DNA from: Eledone cirrhosa
Taxonomy: Eukaryota
NCBI GenBank assembly: GCA_964016885.1
Contig: CAXHJY010001669.1
Span: forward strand, 124,001-188,000
Direction: 5' to 3'
Length of the DNA: 64,000 nucleotides
The notes below the pieces were generated by a model that worked only from the letters and a program-made list of their open reading frames with translations, made no database searches and was not told the origin of the DNA. The translations under genes were made by a program, and so were the position numbers. Below, in pieces: positions 11,033 through 55,393 of the stretch. The stretch's first letter is position 1. Every line of letters begins with the position of its first letter.

Positions 11033-11902
11033 TAGTCGACTGGTGGTTCAGGAAACGTTCCTTAAATCGGCCCACCATCATACCGACATAGGATTTGACC
11101 TCTTGTGGTTGGTTTGGTCGGTTGGAAATGACCACAGCTTCATAAATTACAGCTGGTGTGTTGCATTGCTGTTGAAGGAGGCAAGCTTCAGGCTTACGGC
11201 AAGAGCACCCTAGTGGGGTGTTGCTCCTAGGGCTGCTGGTAATGTGGATCTTCATGTTCTTAGCGCAGGAGTATCCTAGGCGGAGGAATGTTTCCTGAAC
11301 CATCAGTCGACCTTTAGGTACCCGGACAGACGTTCATCCACGAAACTCGCGAGCCGCGTATGGTCCCTCAAGAACTCAAGTATAGACTACTCCATTCAAT
11401 GGAAAGCCATCACTAAGTCCAAGCCATACGCAAGGGGAAATCTGTCGTGTGGACTGTGTATTGACGAACGAATAAATATTCTAAAGAGATTATGCAATAG
11501 TGATTGCCTAAAGTCGAGAAATGAATTTTTCACACGTTGTCCACACGTCTCAAAACACCTATTGCATAACTACAAAGCTCCGGATTGAATGAATTATTGT
11601 AATAACATCAATATTTTTTCTTATCAATTAAAAACTTTTCGGACTTTCGCAGTTATCTTCCTTACACCTCTCGCACGCATTTTAGCATTGCCTGTGTGAA
11701 GTGACCGGTTTCTGCGCATGCGCGTTCGTACGGTTGTCCTTCCTGTTCCGTATAACCATACCCATTACGAGCTGAGGATCCGCTAAGGTGAAACAATTGT
11801 TCTCGGTATGGTGAACTAACTGTTGTGTAACCACTCCTACCTAACTCGTCCCATGGACTGAGTGCTCTACCACTACGGATATTACCTTCCAGTGTTCTAC
11901 CA
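11033..11902 (+). mobile_element. 5'-inverted, truncated PLE-A-family copy: GIY-YIG N-half on minus (11033-11280), C-half plus 3' end on plus (11283-11902)
   Basis: High similarity to 35-540; about 25 nt (FLNHQST codons) present in both orientations; ends in (TA)n. Confidence 0.88.
11762..11811 (+). ncRNA. Type I minimal hammerhead ribozyme (family 1)
   Basis: CGAG-CUGAGGA-UCC GCUAA GGU-GAAA-CAAUUG-UU-CUCG; palindromic stem III ACAAUUGU; stem II is weak. Confidence 0.8.
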
Positions 11903-12035
11903 CTATATATATATATATATATATATTTAGGAGATGAATAAATTAGGTATAATACCAAATGCGAAGAAGCTCGATATATTAGCCCCTTAGGAAAGGGCAC
12001 AAAGCACATTTAAAAAAAAATTATATATATTTATA

Positions 12036-12255
12036 CAGTGGCGGTGGAACTTTGCAAGCCCCCCTCCAATAATTATATTTTCTCCCCAAACTACCAAAAC
12101 ACACATCTATTTGGATATGCGCTACAATTTATGTACATATTATGTTTATCGCATATCGAAGTACTCAGGCAATTTTAGAGTGCAAAAGAGGTAAACTAAT
12201 CACTACAACTAAATTGTCGCTCCCCCTTCATTCAGAAATGCTTCCACCGCCCATG
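12036..12255 (+). mobile_element. TIR MITE
   Basis: CAGTGGCGGTGGAA ... TTCCACCGCCCATG, followed by CAAGG. Confidence 0.75.
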
Positions 12256-12345
12256 CAAGGAGCTTACTTCGAAGTGGATTAGTAATTGAACCGTACCAAG
12301 TACGTAATATTGTCTAGCATTAGAGCGGATACTTTTCCGACAGAC
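12256..12345 (+). pseudogene. Mariner relic, right part and right TIR
   Basis: QGAYFEVD* continues the peptide broken at 4920; CGGATACTTTTCCGACAGAC resembles a mariner TIR. Confidence 0.8.
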
Positions 12346-51715: not shown

Positions 51716-51940
51716 AAGCTAGAAGGCTCATTTGGCCGGTGCTTATCCCGGTTTCATGGCGCCAGTCCATCGCAGGGTTAACCCCCCAGCTATTGCTGGT
51801 ACTCATTTTCAGCTGAGTATACTGGAACAACGTAAAATGAAGTGTTTTGCTCAAGAAGACAATACGCAACCCAGCAATCGAACCCACGACATTATGATTG
51901 TAAGTCCAACACCCTTGCCACTAGGCCACGGGCCTCCACC
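51716..51940 (-). mobile_element. tRNA-derived SINE with Deu/Nin-like domain (related relic at 26030-26200)
   Basis: A box TGGCCTAGTGG, B box GGTTCGATT, AACCCTGCGATGGACTGG core. Confidence 0.75.
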
Positions 51941-53147
51941 TATATATATATATATACACACACATACAAGCATACATATATATACACCACATAGCATACT
52001 CATATATTCCTTTCTCTCTTCCATTCCCCCTCTCTCTCTCTCTCTCTCTCTCTCTCTCTCTCTCTCTCTCTCTCTCTCTCTCTCTCTCTCTCTCTCTCTC
52101 TCTCTCTCTCCGATAGAACGTTGGGCGGGCAATTGCTTTGAATGTGTTGATGCTTTGTTGTATTTGTTCCGGCTCTTTACGTTCTGAGTTCAAATCCTGC
52201 AGAGGCCAACTTTGCATTTCATCCTTCCAGCGTTGATAAAAGTAAGTACTAGTTGAGTATTGAGGTCGATTCTATCGACTACCCGCTCCCACCTTGTCCT
52301 CTAAAGTTGCTGGCCTTGTGCCTAAATTAAAAAAAATTACTAATATTGGTGGTGAATTGGCAGAACCGTTAGAGCGTCTGTCTAAATGTTCTACCCATTT
52401 TTGTTCCGATATTAGCTTCGCCTTTCATCGTTAGGGGTCGATAAAATAAAGTACCAGCAATGCACTAGTGTCCCACAACCAACAGATGTGTATATATGTA
52501 TAGAAACACACACACACACACACACACACACACACACACACACACACACACACACACACACACACACACACACACACACACACACACACACACACACACA
52601 CACACACACACACACCTTTTCTACGACTCAATGTATTTCTTTGTTCTACACGTTGGACTACAATCTTTATTATTCTCTTCTTTTTTACTATTTCTCCCCT
52701 TTCTATATATTTTTCTCTTTGGGCTAACCCCTTGCACACTCTATATTTGTGTAATAGCTTGTCTCTACCTGTTTTGTTGTGTCCTAGTGTGGACTGGAAT
52801 GAATGGCATAAATATAAATTGACCGAAACTATTGTGATTTCCAGAGGTTGACTGAGGACATGGGACTATCCACCTTTCCATTGTTTTTTTCCATTGTCTT
52901 TGTCCTGTGCACCCCCATGTATATATACACACACACACACACACATATATATATATATATATATGTGTGTGTGTGTGCATTTACATATATGTATTCATAC
53001 ATATATAAATGCATGTATACATATATATATATACATATATGCATATTTATACACATATACATACATCATATATATATTATATAAATGTACACACACATAC
53101 ACACACACACACAAACACACACACATATATATATATATATATATATA

Positions 53148-53572
53148 CAATATATTAATAAATGGAAACTATATTTATAAAACCATATTTATTTTATTAT
53201 ACATATTTCAAGGGTAACCAAAGCAAATTATGGTGCGCTTTCATAAAATACAGATTTGTTTTATAAATAAATATTGGAAAAAAGACAACCTTAACGGTTG
53301 GAGCTTCCTGGACTATCCGTTAAGATTGTCTTTTTTCCGGGTATGTCAATATTTATTTATAAAACAAATCTGTATTTTATCTGATGAAAGCGCACCATAA
53401 TTTGCCTTGGTTGCCCTTCAAATATGTATAATAAAATAAATATGGTTTTATAAATATAGTTTCCATTTATTAATATATTGTGTATTTACTCCACTAACTT
53501 ATTGAGTGCTTTATATCAGTTATAAAAATGTTTAAGCTTGTTGAATCCCAACAAATTAAGTATAACTTCTGC
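53148..53572. mobile_element. Short head-to-head pair of family-2 PLE ends with two mutated hammerheads
   Basis: Inverted repeat 53148-53297 / 53317-53480; left copy lacks CTGAT, right copy (53373-53438) has CAAA for GAAA; (TA)n on both sides. Confidence 0.88.
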
Positions 53573-55393
53573 ATATATATATATATATATATATATATAT
53601 ATATATATATATATATATATATATAGTAATAATAATAAATTTGAAGACTAAAATCCTCCGGTTGCAACGTTTTTTGAAATATCCACTTCTGCGTTTACAG
53701 ATTGACTTTGTTAGTTTCAGAAGATCCCGTTAAGGGTGAAAGCAGCGATTCTTTGCTTAAACTTTAATCTGTTATTTTAATAAATATATATATATATATA
53801 TATATATATATATATAAATGAAAAAATAGAAATTATTGTGAGCAAGAAGCCAACAGTATTTCATAATATATAAGTGACTATAACGACAAAATGGAAAATA
53901 ATTAACGTAAGATATGGGAAAATAATTCAAACTCAATTCAATATATATATAGAGAGAGAGAGAGAAAGAGAGAGATGAGAGAAAAAAAGAGAGAGGGAAG
54001 GAGGGGGTTTTCTAAATCGATAAATAGGTGCAAAAACATCCGGCCATATGTATGTGTGTGTGACAAAACCTAAGGAGAGAGAGAGAGAGAGAGAGAGAGA
54101 GAGAGAGAGAGAGAGAGAGAGAGAGAGAGAGAGAGAGAGAGAGAGAGAGAGAGAGAGAGAGAGAGAGAGAGAGGGGTGGTGGATGTTGGAGATGATTACG
54201 TGTACGATAGAGAGAATGGGAGAACGAAATGGAATGAAAGAAAGAGAATGAAAGAAATAGACAGAAAGAAAGACAAAGACATATATAGTGAGACAGAGGT
54301 CATAGTACCGACAGTGTGTGGCAGAAAGAAAGAAAACGGATAGATATATACATTGAAAACGAATGAGTGACAGGCGAGAAAGACAGTGAGAGAGAGGGAG
54401 AACAGTGTGTGAGAGCGAGAGAGAGGGGGTGTCAGTGTATGTGAGAGAGAAAGAGAGAGAGACAGTCAGTGTGAGAGAGCAGAAACGGGGAGATGGAGAC
54501 AGGCATGCAGTGAGTGAAAGAGAAAAAGAGCGACAGGCAGCGAGAGAGAGAGAAAAAGAGCGACAGGCAGCGAGAGAGAGAGAGACAACAGCCAAGTCAA
54601 GGCGGACAACTATTATCGTTTGGGCCAGAGGGCGTTGCAATCGCTTGACCCAGTCGACACAGTTTTATATCCGAGTCAAACGATAGCTATACTAAAATTA
54701 TTAATTGGCCGTCTGGTGGCGCTGCTTTCTCTCAGTTTGCCTGTCGTCCTGCCGAGCTAGCAGTCTGTCGGTATTTAGTGACTCGTTTGTCTAATATAAA
54801 TGTAATTGTTTGTATATTTGTTATTAGAAAACAATAACCGGCTGATATAAAAGCAGTCAGATTTAATGATATCTTGAGCGAACCCAGTAAATTCGATAGC
54901 AATAAATGTTTGATAACACTATCCGTGGTTACAACAAACGGCTGCCATTGTATACGCGTACACACACACACACACACACACATCACACATATAAATATAT
55001 ATATATATATATATATATATATACATATATACAGAGAGAGAGAGAGAGTTAATAAAGGAAACAAAACAAATATACAGAGATGCAAAAGTACACAGTTATA
55101 TTAGGTTCTCGCTTGGAAGAAATGGAGGAGGGTTCGATGATACTGACAGAAGTCTTTCATCAGAAAAGTTCGAAAAAGGAGGAAACAGGTAGGTGTATGA
55201 AAATAGTGTGTGGAAGTTAGGAAAGGAAGTTATCTACACGTATTTGGTTGGCGTCTGGGAGAAAGGAGTACTCAATACCAAAATTGAGTGTTAATATTCA
55301 TTTTATTAAGGCTGAATAGTAAGTGTTGTTACACTGGAGTTTCGCTTGTTTATCATAGGGTCATCAAATAAGAACAGTTCTTTGATATACACC

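Follow-up and report, generated by a model that had tools for sequence, protein, structure and literature searches.

The window analyzed in this study, a stretch of 64,000 nucleotides of contig CAXHJY010001669.1 from Eledone cirrhosa, belongs to a 3.0-Gb, microsatellite-rich animal genome and contains three long Penelope-like element (PLE) open reading frames (ORFs; families A, B, and C) together with numerous short fragments. A short bulged RNA hairpin, which a preliminary description of the window had noticed 3' of the hammerhead ribozymes in the pseudo-long terminal repeats (pseudo-LTRs) of PLEs, is found twice per element in most Hydra-clade families, and insertions end approximately 6-9 bases 5' of one or the other hairpin. 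We suggest that this hairpin pair likely positions the reverse transcriptase (RT) to start copying just 5' of each hairpin. The elements, their hammerheads and tails, internal initiation, and RNA signals recruiting an RT are already known; what appears to be new is a duplicated, uncopied signal that would fix both insertion ends.

Hairpin pairs and insertion ends in Hydra-clade elements

The window families encode a single ORF with the RT followed by a C-terminal GIY-YIG endonuclease (Pfam GIY-YIG gives a weak match, E 2.5e-4, for one C-terminal fragment), and the open frames of Hydra-type ORFs span about 700-900 aa. The N-terminal motif RW[RKI] occurs in all nine aligned families and DKT, in place of DKG, in eight of the nine; the translated ORFs of families A, B, and C contain the CxCx5C linker, and (TA)n is the insertion target. 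Genome-wide, the pattern of the N-terminal motif has 4,551 matches versus three for its control. In the available text of Craig et al. 2021 (PMC8557442), the RT-GIY-YIG order, RW[RK], DKT, CxCx5C, and (TA)n targets are traits of the Hydra clade. The hairpin-bearing elements are assigned to Hydra-clade PLEs by these published traits; the protein trees constructed here have no outgroup. Identity with Naiad was rejected, as Naiad has an N-terminal endonuclease, DKA, and no canonical hammerhead, whereas the endonuclease here is C-terminal and the motif is DKT. Family B is young, with many copies having 821-codon open frames and near-identical scores (L001-L030).

In the hairpin core, R-CUC-Y and R-U-N-GAG-Y enclose an inner part that is variable (6 to about 108 nt), and RCUY mostly follows; this unpaired RCTY (in DNA letters) 3' of the stem is conserved. 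The UU bulge noted previously is indeed present, though its second base is free (UU, UC, UA, or UG) and rarely it is a single base. The order along an element is stop codon, 3' untranslated region (UTR), hammerhead, End1, hairpin 1, End2, hairpin 2, and ATG. Among 23 ORF-joined references, chosen by the protein pattern alone and with hairpin positions picked by eye, hairpin 1 was found in 22 and hairpin 2 in 22; no hairpin 1 is visible in H13, and hairpin 2 of family A has an 88-nt inner part. Many of the 74 ORF starts examined are truncated, with one or no hairpin. The core of hairpin 2 is almost always flanked by G-C and C-G pairs, while hairpin 1 is variable, and the two are spaced by 65-170 nt in this genome and by 55-83 nt in other hosts.

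These other hosts were reached with an alignment of nine families, which identified 78 metagenomic loci with Hydra-type ORFs at 36-45% identity; an earlier metagenome scan with a single protein query had given no match. The loci contain 65 motif matches in 17 kb of sense 5' UTR against two antisense, none in 91 kb of sense ORF, and 18 in 23 kb 3' of the ORFs. At least 100 nt of upstream sequence was available for 66 loci, which reduce to 50 after removal of redundancy; one hairpin or more is present in 44 of the 50, and two distinct hairpins in 26 (28 were counted and two duplicates removed). By eye, six new Hydra consensus sequences of Craig et al. comprise three with a clear hairpin (coral Hydra-2, sea cucumber Hydra-1 with both hairpins, and sea cucumber Hydra-2), two with variants, and one with none.

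To map insertion ends, the 40 bases 5' of each (TA)n run were placed on family references. Two end clusters emerge in every family: End1 precedes hairpin 1, and End2 precedes hairpin 2. The unselected sample comprised 800 kb of the genome, taken as 80 evenly spaced 10-kb stretches regardless of content. Of its 117 mapped (TA)n junctions, 92 are located 3-10 nt 5' of a hairpin that had been called automatically, by a rule that was written after the end clusters had been seen but ignores the ends. With curated hairpins, whose positions in five families were picked after the ends were seen, the count is 97 of 113 junctions (49 End1 and 48 End2) versus 10.8 expected over TA/AT steps. The bases directly past each end are TA-like; as the spacer thus starts TA-like and the mapped junctions are 5'-most, the true start may be a few bases closer to the hairpin. 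In family F0, copies end 48 nt past hairpin 1, and run-on copies continue with six bases, a second hairpin, and then the ORF; this hairpin had been predicted, and the search used the sequence past End2 with a pattern that contains no hairpin. In metagenomic contigs, the 3' copy departs from the 5' UTR 0-5 nt before the hairpin in 15 of 21 informative cases (by eye), with two borderline and four elsewhere; 13 of the 34 rows are uninformative because of contig ends or tandem run-on.

The same ends could have another origin, with the hairpins doing a different job (promoter element, translation, or packaging) and the ends arising from TA microhomology or being inherited from read-through copies. 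The TA-like bases past each end, the location of hairpin 2 within the 5' UTR, and the possibility that read-through transcripts spread a master end are in line with this explanation. Nevertheless, we consider it very improbable: other TA/AT steps of the same regions are left unused, as the above excess of observed over expected junctions indicates, and inheritance cannot give the same offset in more than 20 families and in other hosts, nor can it explain End2, whose hairpin is outside the copied part. Moreover, both hairpins are retained in a unit without an ORF. Two such tandem units, L123 (257 bp) and L277 (~530 bp), keep both hairpins and may be retrozyme-like passengers of Hydra elements. 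A role as a translation signal, one of the functions proposed at the outset, fits poorly because the distance from hairpin 2 to the ORF start varies (34-84 nt) and an ORF-less unit keeps both hairpins.

Inverted insertions combine one End1 with one End2 in 22 of 23 cases in the unselected DNA versus 50% expected, in 51 of 52 cases when loci selected by End2 are left out, and in 79 of 81 overall; the window holds five inverted pairs. The End1 arm extends further 5' in 33 pairs and the End2 arm in 11, and the arms are about equal in 25 (a rough count on 69 resolved of the 79). Inverted PLE insertions carry a tail at one end only, according to the available text of PMC8557442. The one-of-each pairing therefore identifies the one-sided tail as the End1-to-End2 stretch with hairpin 1 inside, and hairpin 2 lies outside the copied part. 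A 30-bp satellite derived from the end of the family A tail was observed at G000:C4:80498918-80500898.

Two fixed ends would also result if the hairpins directed formation of RNA 3' ends 6-9 nt upstream, by an element protein, a host nuclease, or termination, so that two RNA species enter ordinary target-primed reverse transcription. RNA-seq read ends at the Poseidon start sites (available text of PMC11167929) agree with such a scheme, yet free RNA species would pair randomly, in conflict with the 22 mixed pairs of 23 unless one particle holds one of each, and Poseidon initiates internally, needing no 3' end there (same source). We thus regard 3'-end formation as quite unlikely and retain the positioning of the RT by the hairpins as the preferred reading.

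The tight link of the hairpin is to the element ends, at 3-10 nt, and not to the hammerhead. A hammerhead core is present in 12 of 19 references of this genome and in 18 of 19 metagenomic families. The hairpin lies 43-68 nt after the hammerhead in 11 of these 19 own-genome references and 125 nt after it in one, the hammerhead being not found in seven; in metagenomic families it lies 42-67 nt after GAAA in 18 of 19 with enough upstream DNA. As described at the outset, the hairpin is a structured element that is conserved and covaries, located in PLE pseudo-LTRs 3' of the hammerhead and on the sense strand. Its presence across hammerhead-bearing PLE families in general is not supported, and the elements that carry it are of the Hydra clade. 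Among 63 hammerhead cores whose stem II is paired, only three are accompanied by the hairpin within 200 nt, a figure that is not a measure of prevalence in Hydra elements because many Hydra cores fail the stem II filter or end at End1. A general post-hammerhead element was rejected on this count and on the family at 62271, which has a hammerhead without the hairpin.

In other PLE-like families, hammerhead cores without a hairpin occur at 62271-62294, 61525-61549, and 47040-47086 on the minus strand and at 27538-27563 on the plus strand. The 62271 family has a CxxC linker, a histidine-rich endonuclease of another type (L394), and a single fixed end 139 nt further on. In L212 (family F0), the hammerhead core 5' of hairpin 1 looks variant, with the first half altered and a long stem II loop. 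Several entries in the Hydra hammerhead table of PMC8557442, as available, share the four-base word pair of the hairpin lower stem in their stem I or III. Twelve 9-10-mers of the hairpin 3' half had four matches in the small Hydra consensus file and five in the larger Naiad and Chlamys files, the latter apparently in coding sequence; the Naiad and Chlamys search covered those twelve words in files whose lines wrap at 70 nt.

Base pairing and abundance of the hairpin

The pairing of the inner part was counted in metagenomic hairpins, where the search anchors fix outer letters only (GAG and CTC among them), with shuffles as the control. The first inner pair is Watson-Crick in 68 of 73 hairpins (shuffle mean 37.9, maximum 53), the second in 42 of 69 (19.9 and 33), the third in 27 of 44 (11.3 and 25), and the fourth in 18 of 34 (9.2 and 19); the fifth is at the chance level and slid registers are at background. 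In a phylogenetic test with a 44-protein tree, hairpin 1 keeps its first inner pair in every one of the 44 copies, with nine changes on each side, and eight of eight independent pairs agree (p 0.008). This test omits the own references with short translations (H3a, H3c, H4c, H8a, H11, H0b, and H13), of which H4c has a G-G mismatch at this position, and metagenomic rows without a visible hairpin 1; two smaller trees have too few independent pairs for it. Covariation is thus stronger at the first inner pair than at the closing pair stressed earlier. The MAFFT alignment of all hairpins is not structural. In the model-fitted alignment, which leans towards structure, the paired share is 95.7%, and none of 500 shuffles is as high.

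The motif is far above chance in the window: two sequence-only patterns have five matches each versus 0.37 and 0.15 expected, and none of 100 shuffles reaches five. ACTC ranks first among 256 tetramer stems in the 800 kb of unselected genome. The genome-wide pattern has 154,466 matches versus 1,395 for the reversed control. A model built on eight foreign hairpins places previously reported sites as its top five matches in the window and recovers all nine among 25 matches at E up to 10, three of them below E 0.01. An Rfam search placed no hairpin site among the matches listed (150 of 166, E up to 1); as the motif is short, it may fail to score there. We found no earlier description of the motif, its duplication, its offset, or the pairing rule in literature or Rfam, in agreement with the original statement that none was known; key hammerhead papers, Repbase notes, and figures were outside the scope, so an earlier mention is possible.

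Hairpin sites and element copies in the window

The main features of the window are as follows.

45787..45808, minus strand: hairpin 1 of family C, 66 nt 3' of the hammerhead core; lower-stem pairing probability 0.98 in the folded region
45690..45707, minus strand: hairpin 2 of family C, 7 nt 3' of End2 (~45715) and 50 nt before the ATG at 45639
45861..45905, minus strand: type I hammerhead of family C (Rfam Hammerhead_1)
42950..45639, minus strand: Hydra-clade ORF of family C, RT then GIY-YIG, two frameshifts
39783..40915, no single strand: family C inverted insertion; End2 at 39783 (arm with hairpin 1 at 39855-39876, minus), End1 at 40915
41095..41116, minus strand: hairpin 1 of family C in a further arm, which ends at End2 (~41023)
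37844..37861, minus strand: hairpin 2 of family B; the copy starts at End2, 8 nt before the hairpin
35367..37789, minus strand: Hydra-clade ORF of family B, interrupted by one frameshift; other places in the genome have many open frames of 821 codons
34027..34134, minus strand: 3' pseudo-LTR of family B with a hammerhead-like core; stops at End1 just before the expected start of hairpin 1
38023..39735, no single strand: inverted insertion of family H9/F1; End1 at 38023 (minus arm), hairpin 1 at 39653-39672 (plus), End2 at 39735
53148..53572, no single strand: inverted insertion of family H9c; End1 at 53148, decayed hairpin 1 at 53488-53507 (plus), End2 at 53572
53626..53783, no single strand: inverted insertion of family H5; End2 at 53626 (minus), End1 at 53783, hairpin 1 lost at the inner junction
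17670..17864, no single strand: inverted insertion of family F0; End1 at 17670, hairpin 1 at 17793-17816 (plus), End2 at 17864
11844..11863, plus strand: hairpin 1 of family A with a single-U bulge; hammerhead core at 11772-11793, End2 at 11903
49950..49975, plus strand: hairpin 1 of an apparently non-coding unit of ~530 bp; End2 near 50054; the tandem copy L277 has hairpin 2, 8 nt past End2
55270..55289, minus strand: decayed hairpin 1 of family F19, ~40 nt after a decayed hammerhead
25513..25532, minus strand: decayed hairpin, assigned to family F19 by eye only
48952..49064, minus strand: pseudo-LTR fragment of family H12 with a hammerhead core; ends at End1
13385..13545, plus strand: fragment of family H9c; ends at End1

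All nine sites reported in the preliminary description were recovered at their coordinates and on their strands, and three copies had been overlooked (45787-45808, 41095-41116, and 39855-39876, all minus). Most sites had been placed downstream of a hammerhead. Those at 45690 and 37843 are hairpin 2 of their families, and the hammerhead-like stretch before 37843, which had been linked to it by joining the ends of family B, is part of an inverted arm of another family. The three copies listed with an unpaired inner stem turn out to be decayed members of families that do pair: in the 55270 family, 13 of 13 other retrieved copies pair over three inner base pairs (wobble counted), and the C-G pair is present in L240, which serves as the reference for the 53487 family. 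The family C hammerhead matches Rfam Hammerhead_1 with 29.1 bits and E 0.0047, not reaching the gathering score of 34. A hairpin-like site at 24926-24943 on the minus strand lies ~8 nt past the end of an inverted repeat (24952-25036 with 25273-25357).

Among other retroelements of the window, an LTR-type element at 56019-60190 (minus) has a gag-like frame and an open 1061-aa pol frame with RT, RNase H, and integrase; its 412-bp direct repeats (55394-55805 and 60747-61157) are 99.5% alike. Non-LTR retrotransposon frames were found at 6166-8793 (minus; endonuclease and RT) and 50481-51164 (plus; RT fragment).

Proposed start of copying and comparison with known systems

Among the functions offered for the hairpin at the outset, an RT-binding or priming signal is the one favored by the data. 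We propose that the endonuclease would cut both strands of a (TA)n target and that two RT molecules, one per hairpin and likely on one RNA, would each engage one 3'-OH, pair it with the UA-rich spacer, and from there reverse-transcribe towards the 5' end. Joining of the two same-sense complementary DNAs (cDNAs) at their truncated ends would then yield the inverted repeat, in which only the End2 arm would retain the extra stretch (tail) with hairpin 1, and hairpin 2 would remain uncopied from the end where it acts. Internal initiation on an RNA that covers both the pseudo-LTR and the 5' UTR agrees with hairpin 2 being left out of the copied part, and the arm-length bias fits a leading and a trailing RT on one template. 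The two-RT model is carried over from the Poseidon PLE, for which the available text of PMC11167929 describes cutting and extension of both target strands, cDNA starts at two internal RNA sites that coincide with the tail ends, and a predicted dimer.

Several observations weigh against this proposal. The evidence on Hydra elements is genomic sequence and computation, and the precedent comes from another clade: the Poseidon stem-loop, as drawn in Fig. S1 of PMC11167929, has no such motif. Modal end-hairpin distances are 3-11 nt, some families deviate with values of 17, 18, and -1, and the curated positions in five families were, as noted above, chosen with the ends in view. In F4, only the 5' half of hairpin 2 is visible, yet the family has 34 End2 junctions. 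Outside inverted pairs lie 65 of 111 typed ends of the unselected DNA (35 End1 and 30 End2), so the second arm is often not visible. The closing pair is mismatched in 3 of 22 hairpin-1 and 3 of 22 hairpin-2 references, and on the tree it gives five pairs at p 0.06. Finally, wobble counts (14 G-U versus 10 A-C) do not tell the RNA from the cDNA strand, and the hairpin folds about equally well on the cDNA strand, also with DNA parameters.

This last observation is shared by an alternative in which the motif acts in DNA. Here the GIY-YIG endonuclease would recognize, in donor DNA or cDNA, either the hairpin itself or the GAGY-RCTY near-palindrome, cut 6-9 nt away, and so resolve an intermediate at two staggered sites. 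Craig et al. 2021 attribute the tail to endonuclease resolution (available text of PMC8557442), and Frangieh et al. cite earlier work by which the D. virilis enzyme requires the tail sequence (available text of PMC11167929). The conserved unpaired RCTY past the stem would also suit such recognition, and so would the 4 of 29 family B copies beginning 0-8 nt before hairpin 2, in a family whose 5' truncation points are spread over 600 nt. Against it, the Poseidon tail ends are shown in the available text of PMC11167929 to be start sites of the RT on RNA, a cDNA begun at the RNA site would lack hairpin 2, and the tolerance of 60-108 nt inner parts, together with U as the first bulge base in 69 of 73 hairpins, may suit an RNA pocket better than a duplex site. 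We therefore hold action in DNA to be unlikely, and the hairpin pair as a guide of RT initiation on RNA is followed further below.

The form of the bulge gives a hint of how the RT might be held. The count of U at its first position comes from anchors that do not require U, and the pair just before it is Watson-Crick in 68 of 73 hairpins, with the purine on the bulge strand in 67 of the 68. Past the bulge there is G-C and then A-U throughout, but GAG and CTC are search anchors, and the excess over other stems was seen in unselected DNA. TAR, the trans-activation response RNA of human immunodeficiency virus (HIV), has a two-base bulge in HIV-2. By analogy with HIV TAR and 7SK, the bulge could form a U:A-U triple and bind an arginine, a reading we put forward tentatively. 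With similar caution, the two hairpins might be TAR-like arginine-sandwich hairpins on one transcript, each docking one RT protomer, so that both cut (TA)n ends prime at once and the tail and the inverted pseudo-LTR are the footprint of this twin priming. If so, the hairpin pair would be a portable 70-100 nt signal making any RNA 5' of it insertable. On the protein side, the predicted structure of an intact Hydra protein (predicted local distance difference test, pLDDT, 90.7) has TERT as the best match (Z 16.1, root-mean-square deviation 4.4, 301 aligned), and, judging by range end points only, TERT chains alone align from its first residues. The basic RxRW motif in the first long helix of the model is a candidate RNA contact; the invariance of R37 in RxRW was discarded as evidence, being circular, since the proteins were selected by that motif.

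PLEs are the closest relatives of the telomerase RT, and how they choose their RNA and acquire a one-sided tail are long-open questions. A clade-wide, covarying, duplicated motif with a fixed offset and a one-of-each rule turns the tail question into a simple assay. As a marker, the hairpin can also help to locate and delimit Hydra elements along with their non-coding passengers (more than 150,000 sites in this genome), and it suggests that an RT-endonuclease as compact as ~700 aa may work with a small uncopied recognition signal.

In telomerase RNA and other RT-bound RNAs, a structured uncopied part beside the template fixes the start of copying, while the signals of R2, L1, and short interspersed elements lie 5' of the start and are copied. 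The proposed Hydra signal differs from telomerase RNA in being a short duplicated hairpin located 3' of the start site, within the element mRNA. According to Pham et al. 2018 (available text of PMC6189040), the triple in TAR is built from U23 and the A27-U38 pair, and G26 and G28 are contacted by arginines. The TAR and 7SK arginine sandwich described there shares with the Hydra hairpin a paired purine and a U-first bulge. G-A-G paired to C-U-C follows in the sandwich, and the Hydra hairpin has these letters as well, GAG and CTC being search anchors here. The strand order of the Hydra hairpin is permuted and the loop closes the other end; no common descent is implied.

The Hydra clade of PMC8557442, in its available text, agrees with the present elements in domain order, motifs, (TA)n targets, the pseudo-LTR hammerhead, and inverted insertions with a tail at one end. 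By contrast, the main text of that paper does not contain the word hairpin and ties no motif to the ends, and its tails are 30-40 bp versus ~65-170 nt here. Poseidon of Anolis, as presented in the available text of the 2024 work (PMC11167929), likewise inserts into AT-rich targets, has its tail delimited by two internal start sites, cuts and extends the two target strands, and is predicted to form a dimer. It differs in that these sites, established in one element and with no conserved signal, fall within the ORF, at a stem-loop that is AC-rich and lacks this motif, and a duplicated signal, a fixed offset, and a one-of-each rule are not reported in that text; in Hydra elements, these three features are found together.

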